DNA of 64,000 nucleotides from an uncultured delta proteobacterium (GTDB taxonomy: Bacteria > Desulfobacterota > Binatia > UBA9968): the NCBI GenBank assembly GCA_963737905.1, contig CAVTUQ010000002.1, positions 288,001 through 352,000 of the forward strand. Reading direction: 5' to 3'. The notes below the pieces were generated by a model that did no database searches, had not been told where the DNA came from, and saw only the letters and a list, made by a program, of their open reading frames with translations. Below are positions 34,535-62,018 of this stretch, piece after piece. Positions within the stretch are counted from its first letter, which is position 1; the number at the start of each line of letters is the position of its first letter. Made by a program: the position numbers and the translations under genes.

Positions 34535-34587
34535 TTGATCGCAGTGAGATGGGCTTTCACGTCCGCGAACGCTTCGATCTTCATAAT

Positions 34588-35557
34588 TCAAATGATTGCC
34601 TTTGTCGCAATCGTCGTCATCCGCTCCTCTCTGAAAAATTTAAGCTCAGGGGCGCTTCCACGTATCCACGTTCGGAGGATCTGTCCCGCGATCTTGTCTG
34701 GATCCGCCCCAGGAATCGGTTCGAACTTCTGCAGCCGGCCCGCGAAGCAATCTGCCAGGTACAGATTACCGAGTTGATTCGTTGTGATCCCGTGTGAACA
34801 ATTTAGCCGACCAGCCTGGCCACCCGGGGCGCCCCAGCCGTACAGAAAATTTCCGTTGAGATCGAACTTGAGGATTCGACTCGTGGGCGCATCGCCGACC
34901 CAGATGAAACCTTTGTCATCGATGAAGTGATTCACCATGAGCGTGGTCTGACTGGCGGGCCAGTGCGGTGATCTTAGCGGCCACATATCGAGAAACTTCC
35001 CGTTCTCGTCGAAAACCTGCATCCGGGCATGTCCGCGGTCGATGATGAAGAGCCGGCGGTCGGCGCTGATCGCGATGCTGTGGACCGTATTCCACTCGTT
35101 TGGTCCCGGGTTCTTCGGGTCCTTGGGCGGCCCGCCCCAGTCCATGATGAAGTTATCGTTCGCGTCGTACTTGACGACACGTGTGCCGCCGTAGCCGTCG
35201 GTTATGAAGTAAGTCCCGTCGGGCAGCCAGGCGATGTCCGTCGGCCGGTCGAACGTGTTGGGCCCGCGACCGCGCACGCCGAGCTGCCCTTTGCTGTGAA
35301 CCAGCTTACCGTCATACGTAAACCGGTAAATCATGTGGAGCTGGTCGTCGATGATCCAGACGTGCTTCTCTTTGTCGTAGGGGCTGATCTTGATCTGGTG
35401 CGGCCCGCGGCCGCAGGGAAGCTTGGAGAATAGCTCGTCGAGATGCGGCCACTCGTCCACGAGGTTGCCCTGACGATCGAACACGATGATCGAGTGCTGG
35501 AACCGGCGCTCCCATCCCCGCTTTTTCACAGACTCGCACGTTGCCGATAACCCGTCC
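34588..35557 (-). pseudogene. NHL-repeat / peptidylglycine alpha-amidating lyase-like protein, 5'-truncated
   Basis: FDRPTDIAWLPDG, DGYGGTRV, HSIAI, DRG..R.QVFD; no signal peptide or good start upstream. Confidence 0.65.
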
Positions 35558-36545: not shown

Positions 36546-36653
36546 ATGAGGGTTTGGTGAGCAGCGATCGCAGAGCGATCCGGGAACTGAGCCGAAGATT
36601 CAGAAAATGCTTTCAGCACCTCACCAGGCTAAGTACTTAAGTCAAGATTTGCC
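36546..36653 (+). repeat. HUH-end repeat copy R1
   Basis: GGGTTTGGTGAG...CTCACCAGGCTAAGTACTTAAGTCAAGATTTGCC. Confidence 0.9.
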
Positions 36654-36811
36654 TCTACGCCTTGCGATGATTTCTGGCCAGACACGTTTCATTTTTAGCA
36701 ATTTCGCTTAGTCCATTTACTTCTCTGTTAATCTGCAGGTCGAATTGTATTCGGGAGTGCAGCGTTGGCGTCGCCGCTTCATCATGTGATAGATTACCAA
36801 GGGAGGCAGTT

Positions 36812-37045
36812 ATGTCCTGGATTGTGTCAGATGCCGATCATCTAGGCGGCAAACCCCGCGTACGGGATACCCGCATCGCGGTTGCGTTGCTTTTGGAGTG
36901 GCTGGCGGCGGGAATGACGATCGAAGAGATCGTCAAGGAGTATCCCAGCCTCACTGAGGAGGCGGTTCGTGGAACGTTGGAAGAATTAGCCCACTCTGAA
37001 TTGTTGGCGCCTAGTGAAAATTCTTCTCGACGAGAACATGCCTGA
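36812..37045 (+). CDS. DUF433 family antitoxin
   Basis: GGKP.VR.TRI.V..LLE.LAAG.T.EEI..EYP.L. Confidence 0.88.
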   Translation: MSWIVSDADHLGGKPRVRDTRIAVALLLEWLAAGMTIEEIVKEYPSLTEEAVRGTLEELAHSELLAPSENSSRREHA

Positions 37046-37358
37046 GTCGTTGGTCGTTGCCCTGGAAGATCTCGGTCACGAGGTTGATTCGGTCAATCAT
37101 CTCAAACTGAAAGGGCTCGATAACGGGACACTCTATCGGCAAGTTGCGGTCCAATATGACCTCTGTTTTACCAGAGATACTGGCTTTGCTCACAATGTTC
37201 GCCAGATGCGAGATCCTTCACAAGTTAAAGTTCTGCGCGTAATAGTTCCCAACAGCGTACCGAATCATTCGTTCCGGCTTTTGTTGATGCTTTTCAAAAG
37301 TCCAATTGGTCGCGCTACTCGAATGGCGACGATTGGCCCTAGCTCCAAGGATACATAA
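37014..37358 (+). CDS. DUF5615 PIN-like toxin (probable frameshift ~37249)
   Basis: MKILLDENMP, HEVDSV, TRD.GF; adding one C gives a better C-terminus ending 37342. Confidence 0.82.
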   Translation: MKILLDENMPESLVVALEDLGHEVDSVNHLKLKGLDNGTLYRQVAVQYDLCFTRDTGFAHNVRQMRDPSQVKVLRVIVPNSVPNHSFRLLLMLFKSPIGRATRMATIGPSSKDT

Positions 37359-37565
37359 AGGTTGGTCGAGACGCAGTGGGAAAGTCTCCTAGCCCAAATG
37401 GTGCTAGGGCACCAAGATTTTGTCGAGAAGCTAAAAGGAATGAAGATCAAGGGTTTGGTAAGGCGCGATCGGAGAGCGATCCGGGAAAAGATCGAGACTG
37501 AAGCGAAGATCCGAAAATGGTTTCAGGATCTCACCAGGCGAAGTACTTAAGTCAAGATTTGCCCA
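37349..37565 (+). repeat. HUH-end repeat copy R2 (includes a more upstream transposase segment)
   Basis: Encodes ETQWESLLAQMVLGHQDFVEKLK..GLVRRDRRAIREKIETEAKIRKWFQDLTRRST*; ends AAGATTTGCCCACTAG. Confidence 0.9.
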
Positions 37566-37617
37566 CTAGCGGCCGTTTCTTTGCGCAGGGAAAAAGTACG
37601 TGACCTATTTGACAGAT

Positions 37618-37932
37618 TTACGAACCCAATTTAGATTTTTTTCGGACTTGCGAAGGGCGTTTGGCTTGATGACGCCGAGCGACAGTCTTCCAGAATTCGT
37701 TGTGTGACACTCCTTTGCCTGCTTTAATGCTTCTTCGTGATTTAGCAAGCAAAGACTGGAACCGGCGCGAGTGGGCTAGCATGAGCCGTTCCAAATCGTC
37801 ACTATCCTTCGGCGCTAGCAATACCGCGGCGGCCTTGCCGTTGCGCGTAATAATGACCGGGCCCTCATTCGCGCATTCATCTACATAAGCACTGAGATGG
37901 GCTTTCACGTCCGCGAGCGCTGCGATCTTCAT
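37618..37932 (-). CDS. Phd/YefM family antitoxin
   Basis: ADVKAHLSAYVD, PVIITRNGKAAAVL. Confidence 0.9.
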   Translation of the reverse strand: MKIAALADVKAHLSAYVDECANEGPVIITRNGKAAAVLLAPKDSDDLERLMLAHSRRFQSLLAKSRRSIKAGKGVSHNEFWKTVARRHQAKRPSQVRKKSKLGS

Positions 37933-38252
37933 AGTTCGAACTCCTGTCCGCCAATAAACAACCGATCGCCTTTTTTCACGCCGATCGCCAAGACAGAGAC
38001 AGTCTTTTCCTCATGATTCACGTTGTAAAAAACACGAAACGAGTTGTTTGGCCCAAAACGCAATTCCCAGGTCGCGCCGAACCAGGCCGGCTCTTCAAGC
38101 GGTTTACGGTTTCGAGTCTCCGTCGTGGGCGTGTGGGAAAGCTGCTCTTCGGTGGTCGTCGCGACCAAACGGTGATATTTAAGCTCGATCCAATCCAAAT
38201 GTTTGTACGTCTCTGGCGCATAGCTGATCGCAAATGTGGATCGCCGCGCCAT
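37929..38252 (-). CDS. RelE/ParE family toxin
   Basis: WELRFG...FRVFYNV...V.VLAIGVK; ATGA overlap with the antitoxin. Confidence 0.85.
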   Translation of the reverse strand: MARRSTFAISYAPETYKHLDWIELKYHRLVATTTEEQLSHTPTTETRNRKPLEEPAWFGATWELRFGPNNSFRVFYNVNHEEKTVSVLAIGVKKGDRLFIGGQEFEL

Positions 38253-38260
38253 TGACCACA

Positions 38261-38288
38261 ATTATAGTCATCAACCAGTGGAAATCAA
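38261..38288 (-). promoter_or_regulatory. Promoter of relE-phd pair, probably leaderless
   Basis: TTGATT-16nt-TATAAT, ATG 8 nt downstream. Confidence 0.6.
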
Positions 38289-38380
38289 ATACTCGCAGCG
38301 ATCCGCCGCGTCATATCCGCGCAAATTCATGACCCACACGATTGCAGTGAGCGAGGAAAGAGCAGTGCTAAAGATCAGCT

Positions 38381-38737
38381 TATCGAATCATCCAAAGCAT
38401 CGACGCCGAAGCGCTAATCAAGCAAGCAGGAGATTATTTCCGGCTAAGCGGCAGAGTTTACCAGGAAACGGTGTGGTATTGGCAGGAACGAGCGCTAGTG
38501 ATCATTGCACCAATACAGCGAGCTTAAGGTCTCGGTGGTTTACCGTCTCTCCGACGGCTTGAACGGTTTGAACGGATTGAACTGTTTGAACAAGTAACGG
38601 CTCATTGCCGAGCGGTTTAGGAGGGTTTGGTGAGCCGTGACCGCGGAGCCATCCGGGAAAAGATCGAGACTGAAGCGAAGATCCGAAAATGGTTTCAGGA
38701 TCTCACCAGGCCAAGTACTTGAGTCAAGATTCGACCC
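38381..38737 (+). repeat. HUH-end repeat copy R3 (longest; contains 9-mer insert)
   Basis: RIIQSIDAEALIKQAGDYF... through ...AAGATTCGACCCTAG. Confidence 0.9.
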
Positions 38738-38835
38738 TAGCGACTTTGCGCTTGTCGTAGCTAATTTCCGCGCAACAAGATTGGCAAGAGCACTAAGAAC
38801 AAGCTGAAGTTGGCGAGCGCGTAAATTGCGCGTGG

Positions 38836-39918
38836 TTACCGAGACGGCCGCGCCGGCAGTGGCGCCGGCCCGGAAAGTCTCTTGAAGAGATCGATGATCT
38901 CGGCTTCCCGCGGCAACTCGCGAAGCTGTGTTTCGAATTCCTCCCAAGTTAGCGGCATGGCTGGCTCCGAGGTGAGTTTCTCGTAAGCTTTGATGTACTC
39001 CGGGTCGGCTAAGGCTTTGCGCATGGCCTCACGCAATATTTTGACTTGCTCCGCCGGCGTGCCCGGCGGCAGCACAAACGGCTGGCCGGTGTCGCGTGCG
39101 CCGCGAAAAAGCTGAATGAGACGGCGGTCTTGATTTGAGCGAGCGAAACTCTCGATCTCGGAAAGTTTGGCGAGCCTGGTATCGGCGTGTTTGAAGCCCT
39201 TGGGGATGTCGATGGTGGCGTGAACATGTACCAGATCTTTATCCAACCACGCTACATTGCGCGTCAGCAAGCTGTCCAGGATGCTTACCCTGGCATCGAT
39301 TTCGTTCCTCTCCAAAGCGAAGTCGATCTCCCGCGGCGTGTAGCCGGTGACAAAACGCGGCTCTTTCATGTCCAGCATGTAGGCGAATAGCCGGGCCATG
39401 GTGTAAAGACTGTGACCGACGGCCGGGGCGCCGATGCGCACACCGCGGGACGCGGTCAAAGTTTCCCGGCTGTTGAAGCCAGCGGCCTTGCGCGTAAGAA
39501 AAGCATAGGGCGCATAGCGGGCATGAGAGCCGAGATAAATGAATTTGTCCAGATCATAGAGCACGTCGGTCTCGCCGAAAATCGTGCCCTGCACCATTCC
39601 CGTGATCATGGCGCCGACGGTCAAACCATCAGGCCGGACTGACTTGTACATGTGATTGGCTGCCTTGCGCCCGCCGGCGCCGGACATGTATTGCATGACG
39701 ATGGCAGGATGGCCGGGGATATGTTTTTTCAAGACCGGAATCACTGCGCGTGTACGTAGATCGCCCGCACCGCCGGCGTCAGTGCCGCTAAGGAGAAGAA
39801 CATTCTTGCCTTCATAGAAAGGCGTCTGGGCCAATGCCGCTGGGGCCAAGACGATCCACTGCGCCAGCAGAAGAAAGACGGTAAACACGACGATCTGCAG
39901 TTTGTGTTCTTTTTCCAT
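38836..39918 (-). CDS. Tripartite tricarboxylate transporter (TctC/Bug) substrate-binding protein
   Basis: TPFYEGK, GG..D...R, IPG.P, GAGG..AAN, PDGLT, PPGTP. Confidence 0.87.
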   Translation of the reverse strand: MEKEHKLQIVVFTVFLLLAQWIVLAPAALAQTPFYEGKNVLLLSGTDAGGAGDLRTRAVIPVLKKHIPGHPAIVMQYMSGAGGRKAANHMYKSVRPDGLTVGAMITGMVQGTIFGETDVLYDLDKFIYLGSHARYAPYAFLTRKAAGFNSRETLTASRGVRIGAPAVGHSLYTMARLFAYMLDMKEPRFVTGYTPREIDFALERNEIDARVSILDSLLTRNVAWLDKDLVHVHATIDIPKGFKHADTRLAKLSEIESFARSNQDRRLIQLFRGARDTGQPFVLPPGTPAEQVKILREAMRKALADPEYIKAYEKLTSEPAMPLTWEEFETQLRELPREAEIIDLFKRLSGPAPLPARPSR

Positions 39919-40754
39919 TAGCCGGTTAGCTCCCACCAGTTCTTGTCCAGGTCGCTAAAGATAAAACTGGTTTTGCCGTTGATAGTGTCGAGCTGGCCGA
40001 GCTCGGTGATGCCGGCGGCCTCGCCGTTGGTCGAGAATTCGCGGTGCGCTTGCTCAACTGCCGCGGCTGAATCCATTTGCAAAGTGAATCGGTTCACCGG
40101 TGCTAGATACTGACGCGGGCTGCGCTTCAAGACCACGATGTACCAGGGTGCGGCGGCGTGCTTGACGTATTGGGCGTTGTTGAATCCCGCCAGGATTTCG
40201 AGTCCCAAAACATCGATGTAGAAGCGGCGGCTGCGCTCGATGTCGTCGCACTGGAGCGTGCCGTGGGTGAAAGCCTGCGGCACGTAGCCGCGTTCGGAAA
40301 AGCGCTCGTCGGTGAGCGGCTTATCCCAATGGCCGGCGGTGTGAGCGCGGCCGTGCTGCGCGCCACCGGGATTGTAATATTCGATCTCCAGATGGTTGCC
40401 GCCGGGCTCGCGAAAATAGATCGAGTAAGCGAAGTGCGCGCTCTGCGGTTTGGTGATTTTGCTGAGGTGGTATTTCTCTTTGTTGGCCTCGATGTATTTC
40501 CAGGCGGCTTCGACTTCTTCATGGCGGGCGACGCGAAAGCCGTAGTGATTGTCAAAGCCCTTTTCTGGCGCGTCCGGACCGCCTTCGTGGACGATCAGGC
40601 GCCAGTCGGTATTGGGATGCTTGAGGGTGGCCTCGCCCGCTTTTTGCTCGACGATCTCCATCGCCAATAGATCGGTAAAGACCGGAAGGGTTTCCGACAG
40701 CGACCGGCATTCGTAATGGCCCGCAACGAGGCCGGTGGTGCGCAAAATTGACAT
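39918..40754 (-). CDS. Two-domain VOC/glyoxalase family protein
   Basis: H...HYGF, SIYFREPGGN.LEI, second domain THGTL...SDLDKNWWE; TAATG overlap. Confidence 0.85.
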   Translation of the reverse strand: MSILRTTGLVAGHYECRSLSETLPVFTDLLAMEIVEQKAGEATLKHPNTDWRLIVHEGGPDAPEKGFDNHYGFRVARHEEVEAAWKYIEANKEKYHLSKITKPQSAHFAYSIYFREPGGNHLEIEYYNPGGAQHGRAHTAGHWDKPLTDERFSERGYVPQAFTHGTLQCDDIERSRRFYIDVLGLEILAGFNNAQYVKHAAAPWYIVVLKRSPRQYLAPVNRFTLQMDSAAAVEQAHREFSTNGEAAGITELGQLDTINGKTSFIFSDLDKNWWELTG

Positions 40755-40952
40755 TGTTTTCTCCCTGAGACCGTAATCCGCGGCTCCGTGCAAAATATCA
40801 GCACGCCAAAGTGGTAGCAATGCTGTCCGACACGGTCTCAGTTCCCGTACAGCGTTTTGAGAAATCCTTCCTTTTCCACCGACCATTAGCATAACGGTGA
40901 AAGCCGGCAAGTTCAGTCAACATTCGATCTCTTTTCGCCCGTTAATGGGTGG

Positions 40953-40981
40953 TTGCGACATGACCTGTATATGACTATAAT
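40953..40981 (+). promoter_or_regulatory. Promoter of phd-vapC pair, probably leaderless
   Basis: TTGCGA-17nt-TATAAT, ATG 6 nt downstream. Confidence 0.65.
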
Positions 40982-40987
40982 CTGGCC

Positions 40988-41239
40988 ATGAATGTTGTAA
41001 ATGTAGCCATTTTAAAGGAAAAACTCAGTTACTATCTGAGCCTGGTCAAGTTGGGCGAAGAAGTCGTCGTCACCTCGCATCGTCATCAGGTCGCGCGAAT
41101 AGTTCCGGCGGCCGCTCCTTCGGCGGAGATCGTGGAGCCTACTCGCCCGGTCAAAGACTTAAAAAAAGTAAGAGGCATTACGCCCAGACGATCGTCGTCC
41201 GGAGTGAAATCTCTTTTAGACGACCGCCGGCGCCGATGA
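40988..41239 (+). CDS. Phd/YefM (VapB-type) antitoxin
   Basis: VAILKEKLSYYL.LVK.GEEVVVT...VARIVP. Confidence 0.88.
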   Translation: MNVVNVAILKEKLSYYLSLVKLGEEVVVTSHRHQVARIVPAAAPSAEIVEPTRPVKDLKKVRGITPRRSSSGVKSLLDDRRRR

Positions 41240-41655
41240 CCGTTTACGTCGACACGTCGATCGTCCTGCGCATACTGTTACGGGAGCCGAACCCGGTAGG
41301 CATTTGGGGTCAATGGAACAAAGCCTACAGCAGCGCCCTGTGGCGCGTCGAAGCGTTGAGAACGGTCGACCGGCTCCGGTTAACTCAAGAAATCTCCGAT
41401 TCCGAAGTCGCGGAGCTCGTGCATGAAATCAAGATTATCAACCAAACCTTCGCGATTCACCCGCTCACAAACCAAATCTTTCAGCGAGCGAGCGAAACTT
41501 TTCCCACTGTGGTCGGAACCCTGGATGCGATTCATTTAGCCACGGCGCTCTCGATACGTGAAATTGAAAATATTGATTACCTGCTGACCCATGATTCGCA
41601 ACTCGGCACCGCTGCTAGAAGCCTTGGATTCGACGTGATGGGAATGGATCAGTAA
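41236..41655 (+). CDS. vapC: VapC PIN-domain toxin
   Basis: YVDTS, TLDAIHLATAL, THD.QL; ATGA overlap. Confidence 0.9.
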   Translation: MTVYVDTSIVLRILLREPNPVGIWGQWNKAYSSALWRVEALRTVDRLRLTQEISDSEVAELVHEIKIINQTFAIHPLTNQIFQRASETFPTVVGTLDAIHLATALSIREIENIDYLLTHDSQLGTAARSLGFDVMGMDQ

Positions 41656-41699
41656 AAAGATCGGCGCCGAAATGTGGGGGCTGCGAAATACCGGAGGGA

Positions 41700-41971
41700 C
41701 TGCGGGCGGTATCGGCAGGAACGAGCGCTCGTGATGGAGCTATTGCATCGATACAGCGAGCTTAAGGTCTCGGTGGTTTACCGTGTCTCCGACGGCTTGA
41801 ACGGTTTGAACGGATTGAACTGTTTGAACGAGCAACGCTCATTGCCGAGCGGTTTAAAGGTTTGGATGAGGATTTGGTGAACCGCGATCGCAGAGTGATC
41901 CGGAAAAGATCGCGACTGAATCGAAGATTCGAAGTGGTTTCAGGATCTCGCGACGGTAATTGCTTGACCCC
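41700..41971 (+). repeat. HUH-end repeat copy R4 (9-mer insert; variant end TTGACCCC)
   Basis: GRYRQERALVMELLHRYSELK then insert then GGATGAGGATTTGGTGAACCGCGATCG...TTTCAGGATCTC. Confidence 0.85.
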
Positions 41972-42185
41972 ATGCCTCAATGAGTCGCTCGACCTCCGGA
42001 TTTTCGAAGATCCTAACGATAACTTTGTCCAACTAGTCAACATGTCCCTATTCTCCATCCGGTTCAGTCAAGCTTATCTCGTCAAGGCCTAAATTTCCCT
42101 CGACTTAGCAAATCGGCTTTTATAATGTGAGCTGTGACCGGTTTCGGTGCCTGCTCGATTTTTTGTTTCCAGGAGGAACTGAACA

Positions 42186-43166
42186 ATGAAAAAAATCATC
42201 GTGTCGATGATCTCGCCACTGCTGATCGGCGTGTTGCTGCTTACCGCTCCATCGACGTTCGCCCTAGATAAAGTCAACGTTACTCTGCCATCCAGGTCGT
42301 TTCAGTTCATCATCTTTCCGCTCGCCAAGGAGCAGGGTTATATGAGGGAGGAAGGAATCGATCTTAATATCGTCGTCATGGCGTCCACCCCTAGCCTTCA
42401 AGCCGTGCTGGCCGGAGAAATGGATTTCACCGGTTCCGGGAGCGGCGCTCTAGTCGCTGTCGCTAAAGGTAATGCTCCGTTCAAAACCGTGTTGGCGGTC
42501 ACCGACCAGGTGCTGCAGTGGCTCGTCGTGCGGCCGGAGTACAGTGCTTTCAAAGAACTAAAAAATAAGAAGATCGCCGTGACCGGGGTCGCCACGGTGG
42601 CGCCGTTCATGTTGAAGAGGATCGCTCTAAAATACGGTCTCGACGGCAACAGGGATTTTACGTTTATCGCGCTGCCGCCTGGTCAACGCCTCACGGCGCT
42701 CCAATCGGGAGCCGTGGATGCCGGCCTATTGAGCTCGGAGGAACGCTTTGCTGCTCTCGATCTCGGTATGAAAGAGATCTTGTATCTGGGCAAAGAGGTG
42801 AAAAATTCTTGGGGCACAGTGGCGACCACCGATCAATTTATCAAAGCCAAACCAAAGGTGACGCATGGTTTCATGCGTGCCCTCCTTAAATCCCTGCGCC
42901 TCGTCAAGCAGAACCGCGAGATCGCGATGGACACCATGATGAAATTTTCAGGGTTAACCAAGGAATTGGCGGCGCGGACATACGACGGCATGATCGGAAC
43001 CTTTACAACCAACGGCGTGGTCGACGAAGAGACGCAGAGAAACGATCTCGACATCGTTCGCGAGGTCTTCAATATATCAAAGGAGGTGCCCATCGAGCGG
43101 GCCTACGATTTCAGGTTCGCAAAGAAGGCGGACAGCGAGCTGACACAAGAAGGCTGGAAACCTTAG
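42186..43166 (+). CDS. NitT/TauT ABC substrate-binding protein, copy 1
   Basis: Signal peptide, A.E.GY..EEG.D, ELKNKKIAV; AGGAGG RBS; TATAAT at 42121. Confidence 0.88.
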   Translation: MKKIIVSMISPLLIGVLLLTAPSTFALDKVNVTLPSRSFQFIIFPLAKEQGYMREEGIDLNIVVMASTPSLQAVLAGEMDFTGSGSGALVAVAKGNAPFKTVLAVTDQVLQWLVVRPEYSAFKELKNKKIAVTGVATVAPFMLKRIALKYGLDGNRDFTFIALPPGQRLTALQSGAVDAGLLSSEERFAALDLGMKEILYLGKEVKNSWGTVATTDQFIKAKPKVTHGFMRALLKSLRLVKQNREIAMDTMMKFSGLTKELAARTYDGMIGTFTTNGVVDEETQRNDLDIVREVFNISKEVPIERAYDFRFAKKADSELTQEGWKP

Positions 43167-43196
43167 AAACTTTTTCACGGTCGGACTTGGTCGGAC

Positions 43197-43394
43197 TATC
43201 GAATGATCCAAAGCATCGACGCCGAAGCGCTAATCAAGCAAGCAGCGGATGATCGCCGGGTGGTTTGTAGGTTTGGATGAGGATTTGGTGAACCGCGATC
43301 GTAGAGCGATCCGGGAAAGGATCGAGACCCAACCGAAGTTCGGAAAGTGGTTTCAGGATCTCACCAGGTTAAGTACTTGAGTTACGATTTGACC
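43197..43394 (+). repeat. HUH-end repeat copy R5
   Basis: GAATGATCCAAAGCATCGACG...CGATTTGACCGCTAG. Confidence 0.9.
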
Positions 43395-43423
43395 GCTAGC
43401 GATCGCCCTGCACCATTTTTTGC

Positions 43424-43524
43424 TCCACGGTTCATTAGATGATAGACAGCTCCGGGACACTGGATACGAAGCGGCCGTGGCATAAGACGGTGAGTACCAC
43501 AGATTGTCAACAAAAGATTTGACC
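43424..43524 (-). mobile_element. 5' end fragment of a Y1/HUH (RAYT/IS200-like) transposase element
   Basis: ATG 43483 reads MPRPLRIQCPGAVYHLMNRG (typical Y1_Tnp N-terminus), preceded by GGTCAAATCTT, the reverse complement of the repeat terminus. Confidence 0.8.
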
Positions 43525-43907
43525 ACTCTAGGACCTTTTAGAGGAGAGTCCATCTGACCCCCTTTTTCATCCACTTTTTTCATCCAAAAATCGAGCATCT
43601 CCCTTTTCCCTTGCCATCATTGGCCGGGAACCAATGTGGTAACTTTGTGTCAATTCTCTCCGCTATTCTTTCACCCGGCAAAAGATCCAGCGAAATTTTC
43701 TTGTCGGACTGTTCTCGATGGCCTAAAATTCGTCACCATGATCGAAATTCGGATATGGATTTTCCGATCTCGGAGAATCTGACGCAAGAAGCTGATCTGC
43801 TCTCATCAACCTCTTGAGATTGCAAAATTGTCGGCGTGTTCATACGGCTTATATCAAATAAAATATCATGTCTGACCCAGTGTCCAGTGTCTGACCCCGC
43901 TCGCCCA

Positions 43908-44780
43908 ATGCTTCGCTCCAGAAACGTCTTCGCAATTTTTCTGGCACTGCTGACCGGCTGTGCTAACGCGCCGCGGGTGGATCTGGCGGCGCCACTCCCT
44001 CGCATTCGCTACCTGCTAACGTTCGACGACGGTCCAAGCAGTGCGTCGTCGCGTAACTCCACGGCCAGTATCGCAGATACGCTCGTGCAGAACCCGACAC
44101 AAAAGGGAATCAAAGCGATATTTTTCGTGCAAACGCGAGCCCGCACGGCGGGAGGTTCCGATACCGGAAAAAAGTTAATGCAGCGTCTGTTCGCGGAGGG
44201 TCACGTCCTCGGCTTGCATAGCGGTTCGGCCCGCGGCCACGTCAGCCATCGAGCGATGGAATCTTCCGAACTCGTCGTCTCACTCGCGGACGGTATGGCC
44301 GACATTGCCTCTGTCACCGGAGAGCCGCCGTCTTTGGTGCGGCCCCCGTTTTGGGCTTTCAGTTCCGTCACGCTGGACGCGTACCGGCAATCGGGTCTGT
44401 CCATGATACTCACCGATATCTCGAACCGCGACGGCGGGCCGTTCTTGTTTCAGGCGAATCCCACCGACGGCGGCACCATCCGCAATGATTTGGTACGCTT
44501 TCGAGAACGCTTGCGAGCGAGCGAGGTTCCACTCGTGGATGGCATAGCACCGGTGATTGTTACGTTTCACGATACCAATAACTACACAGCCGCGCATTTG
44601 TCTGACTATCTGGCGACGCTTGTCAGCGCTGCAAGTGACGTCCGGCTCGGCATGGCGGATCCACCGTATTATAATGATCGCGCAACCCTGCTCGCGGCCG
44701 CGCAAACAAGAAGCGGTGACACGGCCAGTCGTCGTGATATGGTTCCCTGGCCCTGGAACCTGATTTGGGCCGTACACTAA
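43908..44780 (+). CDS. Polysaccharide deacetylase (NodB/CE4) lipoprotein
   Basis: Lipobox LTGC, LTFDDGP, H(S)...H, RPPF, FHD. Confidence 0.87.
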   Translation: MLRSRNVFAIFLALLTGCANAPRVDLAAPLPRIRYLLTFDDGPSSASSRNSTASIADTLVQNPTQKGIKAIFFVQTRARTAGGSDTGKKLMQRLFAEGHVLGLHSGSARGHVSHRAMESSELVVSLADGMADIASVTGEPPSLVRPPFWAFSSVTLDAYRQSGLSMILTDISNRDGGPFLFQANPTDGGTIRNDLVRFRERLRASEVPLVDGIAPVIVTFHDTNNYTAAHLSDYLATLVSAASDVRLGMADPPYYNDRATLLAAAQTRSGDTASRRDMVPWPWNLIWAVH

Positions 44781-44870
44781 TGCAGGCGGGCGGATGCAGT
44801 CGTATTCACCTGCACGCTGGGCAAAGAAGAAATGAGCTAGTCCGGGATGCCGCCAGAAATCCAAAAGATC

Positions 44871-44937
44871 TTGCCTGCCACCCCTCCAACGTCAGCCGGG
44901 CGCTGCAGAGGAGTTAGTAGACTTAGGCAAGTCTGAC
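44871..44937. repeat. ~67-bp hairpin element, copy 1 (copy 2 at 46017-46083)
   Basis: TTGCCTGCCACCC...TTAGGCAAGTCTGAC; TTGCCT/AGGCAA inverted ends. Confidence 0.85.
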
Positions 44938-44945
44938 GGTATTCA

Positions 44946-45209
44946 ATTTGCCTCATCAAGTTTGGTGTAGTGCGTCCGGGCGCCGTTGCCGGAGAGAATT
45001 TCAGCTCCCTGTTCGATGCCTGTGAAGAATTGGCCTTGTCCCAGAAGCTGTCGTGCCTTATCGCGGGAGTGAATACGGCGCGCCAGGAGGCTTACCGCCA
45101 GATGCTTGCGCGCGGCTTTCGCGCCGAACTTTTAGGAGTGGCGATGGAGAAGCCGAACGAAGCGGGTTATAACCGACCGGGTGTTTATCTCATTGACGAT
45201 TGGCGCTAG
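44946..45209 (+). pseudogene. GNAT acetyltransferase C-terminal fragment
   Basis: IKFGVVRPG...AGVNTAR.EAY..M..RGFR...GYNRP.VY.IDDWR; 5' part absent at the hairpin repeat. Confidence 0.6.
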
Positions 45210-45419
45210 TGAATGGCGCCTAGCAAAACAGTATGGCAAAAAATAAAGCAAAGCCCGTCCCGCGATTAGAAACACTTCGAACATTTGTTGATCAGCAAGC
45301 CGAAGCAAATCACCGTTCAGGGTACGACTCCAACCCTTCTCGTAAACTGTCGTGATTGTGTGTGAGTTTAGAAAATCGCGCAGAGGCACAGGAGTGCCTT
45401 GATCGAAGAGAACCCGCAT
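45132..45419 (-). pseudogene. DUF5615 PIN-like toxin, truncated after ~52 aa
   Basis: MRVLFDQGTPVPLR...GW....NGDLL..A then loss of family-like sequence. Confidence 0.7.
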
Positions 45420-45424
45420 GGTCC

Positions 45425-45649
45425 TCAGTGCGCTTCTGTTTGTAAGCTACGCTGAGCGTGCTCTAGCACTGCTTCAGCCATTTCTCTGGAGACCCCAGGA
45501 AACCAGGAAAGGAAATCGTCGATCCGCGCGCCGCTTTCAAAATTTTCGAACAGCGCTTTAACTGGCACTCGCGTACCACGAAATACCCAGGCACCACTAA
45601 CCCGGTCAGGATCGCGCTCGACAGCAGGGCAAGAAGACCAATCCAGCAT
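45425..45649 (-). CDS. DUF433 family antitoxin
   Basis: DPDRVSGAWVFRGTRVPV.ALFEN...G..IDDFL.WFPGV. Confidence 0.9.
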   Translation of the reverse strand: MLDWSSCPAVERDPDRVSGAWVFRGTRVPVKALFENFESGARIDDFLSWFPGVSREMAEAVLEHAQRSLQTEAH

Positions 45650-45709
45650 GGTTAAAGGTTAGCCGGATTTCACCCCATCGGCAAGTTCCCGCGGTACCCA
45701 GCTGAAAAG

Positions 45710-45991
45710 GTTACCAGGAAACGGGAGCGGTATCGGCAGGAACGAGCGTTAGTGAGCTATTGTATCGGTACGGCGAGCTTAAGGTCTCGGTGGTTTACCG
45801 TGCCTCCAGACGGCTTGAACGGATTGAACTGTTTGAACGAGCAACGGCTCATTGCCGGGCGATTTGGAGGTTGGACAAGGGTTTGGTGAGCCGCGATCGT
45901 AGAGCGATCCACGGAAAGATCGAGACTGAACCGAAGATCCGAGAGTGGTTTCAGGATCTCACCAGGCTAAGTGCTTAAGTCAAGATTTGAC
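45710..45991 (+). repeat. HUH-end repeat copy R6 (9-mer insert)
   Basis: TTACCAGGAAACGG...AAGTCAAGATTTGACTTCTAG. Confidence 0.9.
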
Positions 45992-46016
45992 TTCTAGCGG
46001 CTCCTGGCCGATTTTT

Positions 46017-46083
46017 TTGCCTGCCACCCGTCCAACGTCAGCCGGGCGCTGCAGAAGAGTTAGTAGATTTAGGCAAGTCTGAC
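46017..46083. repeat. ~67-bp hairpin element, copy 2
   Basis: Three mismatches seen versus 44871-44937. Confidence 0.85.
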
Positions 46084-46343
46084 ATAGCTATCCCTAGCTA
46101 TCCCTCTTCCGCCCCCTTGATTTTCCGTTCTCTTAATCTTCTGACGTCTTGAACGATTTGAACAGAGCGTAGCGGTTAAACGCTTTGAACGCGCTCAGTC
46201 CTGAGCACAAGATTTTGTTTCCTCGCCAGCCACTTTTCAGTTTAACAATTCGCTCAGTCAATATAGTTCTCTTGGTGGTGCGTGATTAGTGATCAGAAAC
46301 CCCATGCGACTCTTGCTCGGCATGAAAGACGGTACGGCGTGGA

Positions 46344-46664
46344 TCACGAGACATGCAGAGAGGCGTTGTCTTTTTTGCCTTGATGCGGCTTAACTACGAT
46401 TTCCACATCTTGACCGAGCGCCACCAGGAATCGCAACAAGCGTTCCACCGAGAATTGCCGAAATTCCCCGCGAAGCATCTTTGAAACATCGGGCTGCCGG
46501 ATACCCAACAACGCGGCCACCTCGACTTGTTTGAGACCGCGTTCTTTCATGATCCCATCGATCTTCCAAACGAGTTTCGCCTTAACGAGATGTTCCTCTG
46601 CGTCGGGCAGCCCGAGGTCCTTAAAGACATTTCCGCTGCTTTTTTCGTAGCGCCTGCTGTTCAT
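46344..46664 (-). CDS. HigA-like XRE antitoxin (HTH_37)
   Basis: SSGNVFKDLG, LKQ.E.A.LLGI.QPDVS, FSVERL. Confidence 0.9.
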   Translation of the reverse strand: MNSRRYEKSSGNVFKDLGLPDAEEHLVKAKLVWKIDGIMKERGLKQVEVAALLGIRQPDVSKMLRGEFRQFSVERLLRFLVALGQDVEIVVKPHQGKKDNASLHVS

Positions 46665-47029
46665 GACATCATCTCCTTTGCGATCCGTTCCGCTTCGCGC
46701 AGTCGTTGCCTGATTAACTCGATATCCCGGCGCGGTGTTTCGCGCCCCGTTTTTGATTTCTTTTGAAAGGCATGCAACATAAACAAGACATCTGCATATT
46801 TCAAAGTGTATACGGCGCGGAACGTATCGCCCCGATAGTCTTCAATGATCTCCAGCACCCCCGCTCCACCAAAGCCGCTTAACGCCTTTGCATCACGATG
46901 TTTGCCGCCGGTCTGGGCAATCCACAGGGCATATCCCATGCGATGCTGTACATCCTCGGGAAATTCTCGCAAATCCTTGCGGCTTGATCCAATCCAGATC
47001 AGAGGTTTAGGTGACGGCTCATCAATCAC
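46661..47029 (-). CDS. RelE/HigB (Gp49-like) toxin
   Basis: WIGSSRKDL..FP, TFRAVY, LHAFQKKS. Confidence 0.9.
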   Translation of the reverse strand: MIDEPSPKPLIWIGSSRKDLREFPEDVQHRMGYALWIAQTGGKHRDAKALSGFGGAGVLEIIEDYRGDTFRAVYTLKYADVLFMLHAFQKKSKTGRETPRRDIELIRQRLREAERIAKEMMS

Positions 47030-47037
47030 TTAGTCAC

Positions 47038-47066
47038 AATATAGTGAATTCACCATATTAGGTCAA
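47038..47066 (-). promoter_or_regulatory. TA promoter with palindromic operator, probably leaderless
   Basis: TTGACC-17nt-TATATT; near-palindrome AATATAGTGAATTCACCATATT (47038-47059); GTG start 8 nt downstream. Confidence 0.7.
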
Positions 47067-47189
47067 GATAACCCTAAAAGCATTGCATCGACCGAGCACT
47101 TTGGAACTAGCGGATGATCCCGGATGCCAACGAGAGTGCTGGGCCCGACCGGACCTGCACTACATTGCTAGACCCCATGGTTTTGCTCG

Positions 47190-47322
47190 CAAATCGCTGA
47201 TCGCGATCGACGAAAAAATTATTCCCAGCATCAACCAAATTGCAAAATCGAAAAGAGTTACATCTGCGAAGCTCATCAATCAATGGTTGCGAGAAAAGAT
47301 CGCAACGTCAAAGCGGGCCTGA
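47190..47322 (+). pseudogene. CopG/RHH-type antitoxin C-terminal remnant
   Basis: IAIDEKI...INQIAKSKRVTSAKLINQWLREKI. Confidence 0.45.
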
Positions 47323-47355
47323 TCATTCGGTCAAGCGCGAAGAATGGGATAGGGT

Positions 47356-47489
47356 GCGGTTTAGCGGTTTGGATGGAGCTTTGGTGAGCCGCGACCGCAG
47401 ACCGATCCGGAAAAAATCGAGACTGAACCGAAGATCCGAAAGTGCTTTCAGGATCTCACCAGGCCAAGTACTTGAGTCAATGTTTGGCC
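47356..47489 (+). repeat. HUH-end repeat copy R7
   Basis: GCGGTTTGGATG...CTCACCAGGCCAAGTACTTGAGTCAATGTTTGGCC. Confidence 0.88.
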
Positions 47490-47710
47490 GTTTTGGCTTA
47501 TGTTCGCACTCACAATTAGTAATGTTGGATTGCAACACCTAATGGTAGACCTCAGGTCTGAAATATCCTGCCGAATGCAGATTCTTCCGAATATCAAATC
47601 CCGTCGTCAAGCATTGAATTTCCCTCGACTTAGCAAATCGGCTTTTATAATGTGAGCTGTGACCGGTTTCGGTGCCTGCTCGATTTTTTGTTTCCAGGAG
47701 GAACTGAACA

Positions 47711-48691
47711 ATGAAAAAAATCATCGTGTCGATGATCTCGCCACTGCTGATCGGCGTGTTGCTGCTTACCGCTCCATCGACGTTCGCCCTAGATAAAGTC
47801 AACGTTACTCTGCCATCCAGGTCGTTTCAGTTCATCATCTTTCCGCTCGCCAAGGAGCAGGGTTATATGAGGGAGGAAGGAATCGATCTTAATATCGTCG
47901 TCATGGCGTCCACCCCTAGCCTTCAAGCCGTGCTGGCCGGAGAAATGGATTTCACCGGTTCCGGGAGCGGCGCTCTAGTCGCTGTCGCTAAAGGTAATGC
48001 TCCGTTCAAAACCGTGTTGGCGGTCACCGACCAGGTGCTGCAGTGGCTCGTCGTGCGGCCGGAGTACAGTGCTTTCAAAGAACTAAAAAATAAGAAGATC
48101 GCCGTGACCGGGGTCGCCACGGTGGCGCCGTTCATGTTGAAGAGGATCGCTCTAAAATACGGTCTCGACGGCAACAGGGATTTTACGTTTATCGCGCTGC
48201 CGCCTGGTCAACGCCTCACGGCGCTGCAATCGGGAGCCGTGGATGCCGGCCTATTGAGCTCGGAGGAACGCTTTGCTGCTCTCGATCTCGGTATGAAAGA
48301 GATCTTGTATCTGGGCAAAGAGGTGAAAAATTCTTGGGGCACAGTGGCGACCACCGATCAATTTATCAAAGCCAAACCAAAGGTGACGCATGGTTTCATG
48401 CGTGCCCTCCTTAAATCCCTGCGCCTCGTCAAGCAGAACCGCGAGATCGCGATGGACACCATGATGAAATTTTCAGGGTTAACCAAGGAATTGGCGGCGC
48501 GGACATACGACGGCATGATCGGAACCTTTACAACCAACGGCGTGGTCGACGAAGAGACGCAGAGAAACGATCTCGACATCGTTCGCGAGGTCTTCAATAT
48601 ATCAAAGGAGGTGCCCATCGAGCGGGCCTACGATTTCAGGTTCGCAAAGAAGGCGGACAGCGAGCTGACACAAGAAGGCTGGAAACCTTAG
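47711..48691 (+). CDS. NitT/TauT ABC substrate-binding protein, copy 2 (identical protein to 42186-43166)
   Basis: Same 326-aa translation; 5525-bp offset. Confidence 0.88.
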   Translation: MKKIIVSMISPLLIGVLLLTAPSTFALDKVNVTLPSRSFQFIIFPLAKEQGYMREEGIDLNIVVMASTPSLQAVLAGEMDFTGSGSGALVAVAKGNAPFKTVLAVTDQVLQWLVVRPEYSAFKELKNKKIAVTGVATVAPFMLKRIALKYGLDGNRDFTFIALPPGQRLTALQSGAVDAGLLSSEERFAALDLGMKEILYLGKEVKNSWGTVATTDQFIKAKPKVTHGFMRALLKSLRLVKQNREIAMDTMMKFSGLTKELAARTYDGMIGTFTTNGVVDEETQRNDLDIVREVFNISKEVPIERAYDFRFAKKADSELTQEGWKP

Positions 48692-48721
48692 AAACTTTTT
48701 CACGGTCGGACTTGGTCGGAC

Positions 48722-48921
48722 TATCGAATGATCCAAAGCATCGACGCCGAAGCGCTAATCAAGCAAGCAGCGGATGATCGCCGGGTGGTTTGTAGGTTTG
48801 GATGAGGATTTGGTGAACCGCGATCGCAGAGCGATCCGGGAAAAGATTGAGACTGAACCGAAGATCCGAAAGTAGTTTCAGTATCTCACCAGGCTAAGTA
48901 CTTAAGTCAAGATTTGATCCC
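48722..48921 (+). repeat. HUH-end repeat copy R8
   Basis: ...CTCACCAGGCTAAGTACTTAAGTCAAGATTTGATCCCTAA. Confidence 0.9.
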
Positions 48922-51900
48922 TAACGCTTTTATTGCACAATAACTGCTTGACGGGAAATATAGGATGTCCTCTAGTTTTGTCCTAGCCTGCAAACCACTG
49001 CTCTTTTTCCGCGACTTGCCCAACAGGCACGATTTTCCTCGCAACATTCTCCTTGCACTTGGATTCGGCAGCGGCAACCAAGAAAGCTGGGTACTGATCT
49101 GCATTCTTGACGATTTGAACTGCACGCTCCAAAGGAATCACTCTTTTTTCAGCTCGGGTCATGAATTGCTGATATGCAGAACGCTTTGACACCACGCCCT
49201 TTCTGAAACAACGCGCGATCACTTGCAGCGAATGCTCCCAGTGTTCGTCGCCCGTCCCAAGAAGCAGAACTGCACCGTTCTGGCAAAACTGCAGAATCCG
49301 CTGATCATCAGATGTATAATCGGCCAAATACTTGCGATACAGCGTTAACTGGGTGCTGGGTGGCGTTCGAAGTGCCAGGGCAACACAACTTCGCGGCGAA
49401 ATCGAGTCTGGCAGAGATTTTAGGTTTAGCTCGAGTAGTCGATCGCCCGATTGCGTCAGAGTTAGCGCTATGCCATGTTCAACAGAGTCATAGAATCGCG
49501 TCCAGTCACCGTCCTCAAGCTCAGCCATGACGGACTCAAACTGAGGAAGCGACTGTATAATCGTGTTTTCGCTGGCCCAGGTTAACCACAATTGGCTGAC
49601 CTGAAGTTTCTGTAGGGTACTCTGCGCTGCATGAAACTGTCTCGGCCACCATGCCGCTGTACCCGCGCGAAGACGCGCGTATCTTGATCGCCTGCACAGG
49701 GATTTACTATCCTCGAAGGGATCTGGACAGTCTGTGCACGTCTCAGTCGTTGATTTAATACCACTCCCTACATTGGCCATATGGTAGAAAGCCCATTCAT
49801 TATCCCAGTGTCGTCTTCCTTCTTCTACAACAGTGTCCCAGGGGGACAACTCCGTCGCCCATTCACCTGCTGGTCGGTCCGATTGCTTCTGCACAACGGC
49901 AATAAAAGCAGAGCACGTCCCGGCATTAATGGAGGAGGGTACTGAAGCGGTTGTCGTGCGAAGTTCTGAAAAGGCCTGAGGTTCGGCATGAGTCCAACTC
50001 GTAGAGAGCGGAACATTGTGCGGAAACTTGAACGCAACAGCGTACCGGTTGACATCTAGACAGTGACCAAACAGGTCGAGGATCCCTTGTACGGGCGACG
50101 TCGAAGTCGCCTCGGTCTCCAAACGAAGAATACTCCTTAGCCCGATCGAGAACCGAGCTTCATTCGACTCCAGAAAGTCAAACCGTTTCGCCCGATACAA
50201 AAGATCAACTCTGTCGGAATTCAGTGGCTGCTCTGAAAGAATGTCTTCTAATTGCTCGATGGGGGTATTCGACAGGCAGCCGAGTTGGAGTCCATATCGG
50301 AGCCAATCCGTTCGTGCACTGGATTGAACAGCACGAGCATTGTCTAACCAGACTGGAAACATTTCAGCGGATGAAACGTTCGATTTCAGGAGATCAATTA
50401 CATCAAGTGCGTAGTCTAAAGGTGGGTGCTGACGAAGCAAGGACACGCACCGATCTACGATTTCTTGCTTTCCACAACCCTTGGGGAGCACAACGGGGTT
50501 AGAGCGTCCCCCTCTCCGGCTGTTCGCGGTTAGTACAAACCTAAGCCCCAGTCCATCTAGGATTAAATTCAAGACCTCGCTCACTGACTTTGGATATTGA
50601 GAGAAAACCCAGTCGGAGAGAAGGATCGCCCCCAAAATTCGCGGATGACTAGTAATACCGTAATCAGGATCGTTTGCAAGCTCTTGCAGCCGATCAATTA
50701 ACGACGCCAGTTCACCCTTGCTGTAGCAGCCAGCGTAGAAACGGGTCACGTTAAGCCAATAGAAATCTCGCGCAAGCGCGTCGAATCTGTCTGGCTTGGT
50801 CCCACGCTTTTCGGCACCCGGCGGTGAGTAGGGCGCTGTTTCATATAGAAACCTGGCCGCAAAGTACTCTCGCAATGGCTGGACTTCAAATTCGTACGTA
50901 CCTTGAACGCGCGATACAAGTGCAACTACTCTTTCCACCATTCCCGTGAAGAGGGTCTGCGCTAAATCAGAATTGTGCCCCTCATTTTCCAAGTATTCCT
51001 TCAGAACTTTTGTAAGCCGGTCGGCAGTAATTGCGCCGTTCCTTCTGCTCTGCTCGCGCTCGTTCCCGAGTTCCACTTCGCTATGGAGGAGCCAAGCAAG
51101 ATATCTATGAATATTGATCAGTAGTTCACGGTGATCTCGAACGGTGGGACTCTTCTCTGCTTCTCGGTTAAAAAAAAGCTCGATATAGTTGTCATATAAA
51201 GCCGTCCGTTTATCAGGAAGGGAAGTACCTCGGGTGTGGATTAAACTAAGCAGAATTGCAAGTTGCATGGGATTTCTTGCCAAATCTCGTAGGTGAGGTT
51301 GGGTCAGTTTTTCCTTCAGAATCTTCTTCACCTCATCGCTCTCTCGCTCTTGCAGGCGTCGTGCCTTCAACCATTTTTCCGCGTATTCGTCGATCAACTC
51401 GCGACTCAGGTCGCCAAGTTCAAAGTAGTTGAATTTATCTTCCGGTAGACCCGGAGAATTGGCGAAAGCAGCAGGTCTACTCGTAACAACAACCTGAAGC
51501 GAGGCAGCATTGGCTTCTAGCCGGTCAAGGCCCTTGATGATTTCATCCACAACCTCTCGCCTGCGCTCGATATCGGCTACCTCATCGAGACCGTCAAAGA
51601 CAAGCAATATCGCGCTTAGCTTAGCGACCGCGTGCAAATCCGCTACCTCGAAGTGGATGCCACCAGATTGATATCTTATTAATGCAGATAAGAACGCTTC
51701 AAGAGACTTCGTCCACTCCCCTGCGACGATTTCACCACCCTCTGGCGTAAACGGGTTTCTCCTCGCTAGCCAGCTTGCTAGGTCTCGTAGGTCAACTTTG
51801 ATAGGCAGTCGCAAAGGAACTGTTTTGTATGATTCAGGAAGTTGCTGAATTTCCCCTGAAACCTCCAGAAGTCGCATCCGATGAACCTGGCAAAGAAATT

Positions 51901-52126
51901 GTGTGATAGTCGACTTCCCTTGGCCTGGGGCGCCCTCAAGTACGACGCGAGGAGACACGAATTGTGAACGCGAGCTGAGCAGGTGCGTATTCCGATGAAA
52001 TCGGCACCGATTCCGAAGCAAATCGGCATGCAGTCCGAGCAAATCGGCAATCCGAGGAGTCGGAGCGAAGCGACGCTGGGATTTTGTTCATAACCTAAGG
52101 GTACTGTTGGTTGCAAGTCCGTTAAA

Positions 52127-52855: not shown

Positions 52856-52983
52856 CGGAGATTTTCCTTTCTCGTTTTGGTTATCGATAAATTGGGGGTG
52901 GTCTACCCCTTCATCCCATTGAGAACGTGCGTCAAGGAGGCTTTAAACGCGTCGTTTTTTTCACGGTCATCTGATTTCTCGGT

Positions 52984-61964: not shown

Positions 61965-62018
61965 ATGCTTCAAATCCCGTAGAATCGCCTGGGATTGTCG
62001 GAAAGAATTTCCGTTTGA
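61965..62018. repeat. Direct repeat C, copy 2
   Basis: Matches 57886-57940. Confidence 0.85.

Follow-up and report, generated by a model that had tools for sequence, protein, structure and literature searches.

How does a stretch of chromosome come to look like an integron without carrying one? The question is raised by 64,000 nucleotides from an uncultured bacterium of the Binatia lineage UBA9968 (Desulfobacterota; assembly GCA_963737905.1, contig CAVTUQ010000002.1, positions 288,001–352,000; hereafter, the window, on contig C2 of genome G000), in which copies of one repeat, all in the same orientation, set toxin–antitoxin (TA) pairs and other genes apart in small units. A preliminary description made from the sequence alone had read this array as the work of a trans-acting HUH nuclease that captures, stacks, and shuffles gene units. 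We find that the repeats are 5′-truncated 3′ stumps of a ~1.08-kb element whose right terminal repeat they keep, and that stumps of two other families lie among them. We propose, with moderate confidence, that elements of the TIRtron class, from at least three families, piled up here and then decayed, in a variable island that is low in GC, rich in TA genes, and rearranged by homologous recombination.

Copies of the repeat were sought across the whole 6.7-Mb source assembly, which is 87% complete, with an nhmmer profile of its last ~120 nt (--max, no filters). Exactly ten matches were found (E 1.2 × 10−36 to 1.9 × 10−5), the next standing at E 0.074. Nine are co-oriented on the + strand at window 29.4–48.9 kb, and one, at C2:357262-357321 (window coordinate 69262, outside the window), is inverted relative to the array and lies ~20 kb past its last copy; all ten fall within 40 kb (C2:317–358 kb). 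Repeat finding, blastn, and nhmmer agree that the nine copies listed in the preliminary description are present, within tens of bases of where it had placed them and all on the + strand, and the genome-wide search it had called for found them clustered and co-oriented, nine of ten in one array.

The nature of the repeat is given by an intact parent element in a related genome, G012, where a 328-amino-acid open reading frame (ORF) has both an HUH motif (SNHFHL) and a tyrosine motif (YQGRFKA). The stumps align with the last ~140 codons of this ORF, bearing out the earlier suggestion that the repeat is the C-terminal helix-turn-helix (HTH) part and the end of a long Y1_Tnp gene. G012 is unpublished and is the basis for this first intact parent, for the C258 arrangement and the C207, C246, and C294 fragments described below, and for the intact gene that names T1. 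Intact genes of this R type are known independently of it from G050:C463 (83% amino acid identity), G094:C10 (85%), and eight metagenome contigs; two further unpublished genomes, G006 and G057, entered cross-genome tallies only. Pfam Y1_Tnp matches the parent above its cut-off (1.4 × 10−13), and this domain is missing from the array copies. Among NCBIfam models, REP_Tyr_transpos (1.8 × 10−19; score 70.1, under the curated cut-off of 80) is favored over transpos_IS200 (1.2 × 10−4), and the tail of the parent has a sub-threshold match to Bac_DnaA_C (E 1.7 × 10−4; 22 bits, below the gathering score of 31.5). Stump peptides searched by themselves matched no Pfam family (five of five pieces), and a sequence search of the PDB for a solved structural relative of the G050 protein returned no match at E ≤ 0.01.

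In three intact copies, at unrelated loci of three genomes, the element is bounded by terminal inverted repeats (TIRs) of ~23 bp, and alignment confines the similarity among the loci to the DNA between them. The left-end sequence is GGGTCAAATCTTGACTTAAGTAC; at the right end stands its reverse complement, which overlaps the stop codon, the terminus of the R-type repeat being ...GACCCTAG. The TIR start GGGGTCAA, found in G094:C10 and G012:C258, fits seven of the eight positions of GGGGWSAS, and other copies begin GGGTCAA. According to the parts of the two source papers available to us, GGGGWSAS is the majority motif of TIRtrons, which are TIRYT genes with TIRs (PMC3733652), and TIRYT is subclass 2.1 of the Y1 classification, with a C-terminal HTH like Bac_DnaA_C, HTH_23, or HTH_28 (PMC6006769). 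On sequence grounds, the R-type parent element is a member of this published class. The same terminal repeat occurs in relatives, mostly soil metagenome-assembled genomes of Candidatus Binatia (3 of 15 matches fall in other taxa). No R-type parent was recovered from the source assembly, where tblastn with in-frame stump pieces gave nothing outside the array better than E 0.06.

Aligned to the parent, the nine copies have the ragged 5′ ends and common 3′ end that had been described. R0 (29397–29446; nhmmer E 1.6 × 10−5) is a 50-nt stump with two small deletions in its right end; it stands directly past the stop codon of a 2-hydroxyacid dehydrogenase gene, a junction also found on one soil contig, there with 11 extra bases. 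R1 (36548–36657; nhmmer match 36548–36656) runs from about codon 295 to the right end and has 11–12 nt of 5′ flank in common with R0. R2 (37358–37569; match 37450–37566) begins at about codon 189 and reaches the right end through an internal deletion, and R3 (38340–38740; match 38621–38738), the longest stump, begins at about codon 217. In R4 (41689–41975; match 41868–41972), from about codon 257, the terminal repeat is partly deleted, which accounts for the variant end already noticed there. R5 (43197–43398; match 43279–43396) starts at codon 231 and has an internal deletion; R6 (45700–45996; match 45878–45994) starts at about codon 250–257 and carries an insert; R7 (47348–47491; match 47377–47491) starts at about codon 285 and has five mismatches in its terminal repeat; and R8 (48722–48923; match 48804–48922) is a twin of R5. 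The array stumps are 77–88% identical among themselves and about equally distant from copies in other genera, and are accordingly old. When the seven distinct truncation points were aligned, the missing bases had no motif in common, and partial excision at specific internal sites was rejected for this reason.

Three stumps of other families had been overlooked in the preliminary list, which was otherwise correct in its nine R copies. T1 (41976–42056, +), the 80 nt directly 3′ of R4, is the 3′ stump and right terminal repeat of a third TIRtron family, whose intact gene is in G012:C173. S1 (44871–44939, +) and S2 (46017–46085, +), the latter ~21 nt past the end of R6, are 67-nt stumps that end in the right terminal repeat of an S-type TIRtron; the intact S-type gene, a 294-amino-acid paralog whose terminal repeat matches both, is in the same genome at C32:35606-36490, and solo S-type terminal repeats lie on C1, C4, and C16. 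The S and T families each have terminal repeats of their own. The array thus holds twelve stumps of three TIRtron families (nine R, two S, and one T) in a 20-kb stretch, all on the + strand. In the nine spacers 3′ of the right ends no extra stumps were counted, and a single marginal match of 19 nt was seen after R1.

The stumps set off units of 0.7–3 kb, and Pfam bears out the cargo that had been listed for them. Unit 1 (36812–37358, +) is a TA-like pair of DUF433 (5.3 × 10−20) and DUF5615/PIN_10 (2.4 × 10−10). Unit 2 (37618–38261, −), formerly labeled RelE, does hold the Phd partner, a Phd/YefM antitoxin (9.2 × 10−15), while its toxin is only a weak ParE/Gp49-like match (0.0023 and 0.0046). 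Unit 3 (38836–41655, mixed orientation) encodes a TctC-like protein (weak match), a VOC/glyoxalase protein, and a Phd and PIN pair. An NMT1/THI5-like binding-protein module (42090–43175, +; promoter and ORF 42186–43166) follows R4 and T1, and its second copy (47615–48700, +) follows R7. The polysaccharide deacetylase (43836–44780, +; 7.5 × 10−14) and the putative TA pair of DUF433 (5.1 × 10−14) with a 95-amino-acid ORF that matches no Pfam or NCBIfam family (45132–45649, −) had been taken for one unit; both are there, split by S1. The remaining unit (46344–47029, −) pairs HTH_37 (HigA-like; 3.3 × 10−27) with Gp49 (HigB-like; 4.1 × 10−22). Upstream, 52 nt at 34541–34592 are 90% identical to 37889–37940, the start of the Phd/YefM gene, which suggests another antitoxin gene, or its remnant, between R0 and R1.

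Whether the right ends of these stumps built the array can be judged from where its rearrangements break. According to the capture model, they are attC-like recombination sites at which a trans-acting Y1 HUH enzyme excises and inserts circles of a unit with its end, thereby building and shuffling the array. The co-orientation of all twelve stumps with tidy 0.7–3 kb units between them is what such a process should leave, and S1 and S2, identical 67-nt units in different flanks with a cognate intact enzyme encoded on C32, also speak for it. The duplication of the NMT1 module is another matter. The two copies are essentially identical from 42090 to 43305 only (three mismatches), identity that starts ~115–125 nt past the preceding R ends, 32 nt past T1, and stops inside R5 and R8, ~90 nt short of the terminus, with nothing shared beyond it. 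The spacers after R4/T1 and after R7 are unrelated to each other. On its left the duplication stops at the promoter-proximal point that also bounds the homology with the native NMT1 loci of G023 and G001. Along R5 and R8 the first ~108 nt are ~100% identical (to 43305) and the last ~90 nt ~85%; similarly, R3 and R4 are 95% identical over 96 nt and 77% over the last 120 nt. This mosaic identity points to gene conversion; among R3, R4, and R6 it is modest over whole halves (R3–R4, 86% versus 69%, gaps counted; R3–R6, 78% versus 78%). The NMT1 duplication fits a conversion tract that would have stopped inside a stump rather than excision from terminus to terminus.

Relatives tell much the same. 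Metagenome contig L136 carries the Phd/ParE-like and HigBA units at 92–94% amino acid identity (the unit 2 copy at 93–94%) with one stump between them and is without the counterpart of window 38691–46233, its breakpoints falling inside R3 and 150 nt past S2. G012:C258 has the same junction of PIN gene and R4, preceded by a VOC fragment of 42 codons, Phd2, and PIN (VOC′-Phd2-PIN, 90–94% identical in amino acids to their unit 3 counterparts), with its breakpoints elsewhere; a full paralogous TIRtron splits the stub there, and HicBA and another R-type element come after it. Fragments of genes (LigD′, PrpD′, and VOC′) adjoin stumps in relatives, those like LigD and PrpD on L136. Cassette boundaries exactly at a recombination point, the rule in integrons, were therefore seen neither in the NMT1 duplication nor in L136 nor in G012:C258. 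The preliminary description had expected unit boundaries in relatives to coincide with the repeats and had named their failure to do so as grounds for its rejection; breakpoints inside or away from stumps go part of the way toward this, and some boundaries do lie 25–35 nt from a right end.

Four sequencing runs, compared as short Logan contigs at ≥90% likeness and each matching ≤25% of the sampled query words, add to the results in favor of exchange at the ends; missing cover, depth, and habitat were not used as evidence, and many apparent joints were discarded as alignments hopping between similar repeats (e.g., 41805 to 45815 and 41763 to 48765). In soil and freshwater runs X2 and X5, the VOC 5′ region is joined via 119–177 unplaced bases to 37603, ~35 nt past the end of R2, and other neighbor relations likewise differ in short soil and freshwater contigs, as capture would predict.

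The state of the ends tells further against capture. Terminal repeats within the array have 80% pairwise identity (68% including R4) versus 84% in the adjoining pseudo-coding DNA, and so decay faster than their surroundings, whereas in other genomes the terminal repeat is better kept than neighboring DNA (90% versus 81%). The 13-nt palindromic core is intact in one of nine array copies (R6), and the right-end hairpin is weak (5-bp stem, −2.6 kcal/mol, z 0.55). Contig C2 has no Y1 catalytic domain; the genome has five matches elsewhere, and none in the 87%-complete assembly is of R type. Outside the array, moreover, metagenome stumps are mostly singletons adjoining ordinary genes. The R-type ends in this genome are best read as inert relics, and a trans-acting nuclease that works on these ends, as the preliminary description had it, is an explanation we now regard as quite unlikely.

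A 66-nt in-frame insert in three of the stumps, R3 (38529–38594), R4 (41767–41831), and R6 (45784–45840), may mark their source lineage or may have spread by gene conversion. No intact element with the insert was found, and its left part was confined to R3, R4, and R6 across all fetched loci and the genome. Its core is an array of a separate 9-mer, TTGAACGNN, which recurs in ~38 places in the genome (e.g., C2:213813, C7:103545, and C29:77432). Most genomes of the family have intergenic runs of three to five such 9-mers (TTGAACGNN) in tandem, often as inverted pairs (GTTCAA... / ...TTGAAC) adjoining gene starts or ends. The 9-bp period recalls DnaA-box-like binding arrays.

Direct repeats of the 3′ end of a gene are also the classic sign of serial integration at one attachment (att) site, and the co-oriented 3′-end repeats of the array could on their face record islands that entered one after another by a site-specific recombinase with its att site in the TIRYT 3′ end, each event duplicating that end. 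Neither a nearby recombinase nor an intact target was found. Of the 12 matches to PF00589 (Phage_integrase) in the genome, the nearest is on C2 at 214565–215080, ~102 kb from R0, in agreement with the earlier remark that the array has no integrase (no tyrosine-recombinase gene lies within ~100 kb), and neither array end has an intact target gene. Ragged 5′ ends, stumps from three unrelated TIRtron families, and the commonness of singletons elsewhere are equally hard to square with integration at a single site, which we consider highly improbable.

A scan of public metagenome contigs with an exact 19-nt core yielded 67 loci. Among the 62 profile matches with a right end, 49 were 5′-truncated, eight were full length, and five were cut by contig ends. 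The start points of the stumps ranged between codon 197 and the final 30 nt, and stumps of 55–67 nt recurred. None of 85 terminal-repeat matches was a lone left end joined to a 5′ part of the gene; three of them were labeled left ends and three more lay at the starts of full-length genes, while tblastn on the metagenome loci detected one small 5′ piece, on L112. Many contigs repeat a junction seen in other samples, so that independent truncations are fewer than contigs.

The recurrence of 55–67 nt stumps could mean instead that they are REP-like miniature units, a right end with a variable tail, copied in trans by a TIRYT into intergenic sites. Families of TIRs, both dispersed and clustered, do occur around some TIRYT genes, according to the sections available to us of Di Nocera et al. 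2013 (PMC3733652). Within this genome, S1 and S2 are one unit in different flanks, and the solo S-type repeats on C1, C4, and C16 would be explained in the same way. For the R type the evidence runs the other way: stumps that have a common 5′ end also share their left flank, which indicates one old junction present in many samples rather than many insertions; 5′ ends are continuous from codon 189 to the last 30 nt; and the R copies number ten, all within 40 kb, with 1 to 12 terminal repeats in relatives. We therefore think miniature units unlikely, while granting them some weight.

Right ends also attract other DNA. Four co-oriented adjacencies join a right end, across 13–55 nt, to material of another family, either a stump or a terminal repeat standing by itself: R4 to T1 and R6 to S2 in the array, R to T on L085, and T to S on C4 of the source genome. 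At other loci the DNA immediately 3′ of the right end is the beginning of a group II intron (RF02005, and deeper inside it RF00029), an assignment confirmed by Rfam in six of the seven loci scanned (L080, 2400–2657; L091, 1676–1933; L121, 982–1239; L127, 1828–2085; L137, 901–1186; and L108, 6200–6457), and the intron flank is common to eight right ends, which represent five or more stump classes and none of which is in the window. Group IIC introns insert at hairpins and at attC sites, a behavior that this resembles. Judged by these junctions, other TIRtrons and a group II intron have repeatedly landed at the TIRtron right end. Elsewhere an amidohydrolase stop codon abuts a stump, a junction kept in the inverted copy of the source genome and on seven metagenome contigs.

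The intron, placed directly past the right end as IIC introns are at attC, and the amidohydrolase junction, with its one conserved left side and at least five different right flanks, both count in favor of capture as described above. A broader idea, to which we assign a small chance, is that TIRtron right ends are attC-like single-strand hairpin landing sites. TIRYT enzymes in trans, and the intron as well, would insert or exchange DNA at them in one orientation and so build up, over time, integrase-free arrays of TA pairs and other gene modules, and the window would show an old, inactive HUH-based cassette platform.

A possible counterpart in which elements are still whole is seen at L031 (G090:C8:228000-247900, 7700–14350), a "live" version of such an array. 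A TIRYT paralog of 37% identity is present there in four co-oriented copies, three full and one partial, that are 95–99% identical to each other and spaced at 2.1–3.0 kb. The DNA between the copies has an RHS fragment, DUF4279, and pairs of small unassigned ORFs, and these ORF pairs contained no TA families.

The association with TA genes extends beyond the array. When 56 PIN, PhdYeFM, and DUF433 matches were merged into 46 genome loci, the array held three (0.13 expected), strongly upholding the TA enrichment that had been claimed for it, and nine of the 43 loci outside it lay ≤5 kb from a Y1 remnant (0.98 expected), a count reached in none of 5,000 random placements. A second cluster of Y1 remnants (G000:C14:119178-140540; L054, L055), in a defense-island-like setting with low GC at third codon positions, has three co-oriented 3′ stumps of one family (−) and pieces of another (+). 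The 20 ORFs scanned there at 119–140 kb included TIR_2, Abi_alpha, DUF3800, a response regulator, and pentapeptide repeats and no TA family, so the link with TA genes is not universal.

The array core (36–52 kb) has 51–53% GC versus 58–63% in its flanks. At coarser scale, GC is 51–54% over window 36001–60000, compared with 58–63% at 8–36 kb and 59% at 60–64 kb, as would fit an island, acquired or variable, that extends beyond the array. Directly past the array (48983–54531) are a gene for a 1019-amino-acid NACHT/NPHP3_N NTPase and then an IS21 element (IstB, 52127–52855; IstA, 52984–54531). Short repeats at 56041–56116, 58881–58956, 57886–57946, and 61869–62021 match G012:C207 and L136 at 88–97%; no tRNA was found at them. 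On the other side, at 18119–18363, the window has LigD primase-polymerase sequence of which 5′ fragments adjoin TIRtron stumps in G024:C485 and L136, and in G012:C246 an R-type element lies 2.4 kb from orthologs of window 15.8–18.4 kb; this region may be an old insertion site.

We hypothesize that the array formed in four steps. Full elements would have inserted in one orientation, often directly past the right end of an earlier element. The left end and the catalytic domain of each would then have disappeared, so that a 3′ stump with the right terminal repeat was left. In the related IS608, cleavage leaves the 5′ end of the cut strand covalently bound to the tyrosine of the enzyme; if TIRYT enzymes likewise form a 5′-phosphotyrosine, failed or partial reactions would leave free 3′-OH ends on the left flank and the right end, and the element would be worn away from the left inward. 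Alternatively, the same polarity could have come about because expressed fragments of the nuclease were selected against. TA pairs and other selected genes would have limited the deletions, which may be why stumps begin 0–90 nt from gene ends. The stumps would by now be mere dispersed homology, along which gene conversion and unequal crossing-over duplicate, delete, and reorder units. As part of this scenario the integron-like appearance probably needs no dedicated capture enzyme.

Several observations weigh against this proposal. The polar erosion is argued purely from IS608 chemistry, and the sections of the TIRtron papers available to us hold no TIRYT biochemistry; the truncation points are free of motifs; and 5′ remnants do exist in relatives, in G012:C207, G094:C10, and G012:C294, with three more at contig ends. 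S1 and S2 have the same 5′ end with different flanks on both sides, which erosion by itself does not predict, and some unit boundaries lie just 25–35 nt from a right end (37590–37603). The amidohydrolase–stump junction with its many right flanks also fits site-specific exchange at the terminus. The co-orientation of 12 of 12 stumps is unlike other multi-stump loci, where co-oriented and opposed pairs are about equally frequent, and the proposal would require an orientation-specific landing rule. Finally, the proposal leaves the long survival of such old stumps unexplained.

Set beside known systems, the locus resembles the published TIRtrons most closely, as far as the consulted portions of those papers describe them: in both, a long RAYT-like protein of the Y1 HUH type is flanked by TIRs, which in some copies here start GGGGTCAA, in place of REP hairpins; the C-terminal HTH of the parent has a sub-threshold likeness to DnaA_C; and published TIRtrons, too, have single and clustered terminal repeats. 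The difference is that the window has only 3′ stumps, twelve from three families, co-oriented and interleaved with TA pairs. With REPtrons, in which a RAYT or TnpA_REP accompanies repetitive extragenic palindromes (REPs) and their mosaic elements (BIMEs), it shares a REP-associated tyrosine transposase as best NCBIfam match and inverted, palindrome-bearing flanks; it departs from them in its ten R copies, all within 40 kb, where a REP family would be of high copy number, and in a score (70.1) below the cut-off of 80. The IS200/IS605 elements IS608 and ISDra2 belong to the same HUH Y1 superfamily (Pfam Y1_Tnp), yet they have a TnpA of ~150 amino acids and subterminal hairpins and no TIRs, compared with 328 amino acids, 23-bp TIRs, and a weak 5-bp hairpin here.

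The likeness to integrons, and to attC clusters lacking an integrase (CALIN), is in arrangement: small units, many of them TA pairs, are each followed by a co-oriented repeat that contains a short hairpin; there is no adjacent integrase; and at loci of relatives the repeat end is the target of a group II intron. The differences are that the repeats are transposase pseudogene stumps, that unit boundaries are imprecise, that there is no IntI, and that the ends are decaying. What bounds the units is not attC but a transposase 3′ coding end with its terminal repeat; attC elsewhere in the window was not searched for. The array is thus somewhat integron-like in outcome, while it fails the tests of integron membership that were run (IntI, attC at the repeats, and exact boundaries).

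Our literature searches turned up no paper on TIRtron, RAYT, or HUH arrays with TA cassettes. An excess of 3′ stumps, dense co-oriented stumps of three families, the TA association, and the intron target were reported in none of the text we covered, which did not extend to the supplements of PMC6006769 and PMC3733652; the accessible text of Bertels 2017 held nothing relevant, and the TIRtron papers, in the parts covered, gave no demonstration of TIRYT or TIRtron movement or of its mechanism.

Three leads emerge from this locus: a polarity of decay in which right ends survive, a right end that attracts TIRtrons and an intron, and the genome-wide co-localization of Y1 remnants with TA genes. If the polarity does stem from HUH chemistry, it would offer a simple guide to interpreting the remains of single-strand transposons. 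Were the ends instead exchange sites, cassette arrays would have a second route that needs no integrase. Failing both, the locus would still indicate that an integron-like array can arise from transposon decay and homologous recombination.

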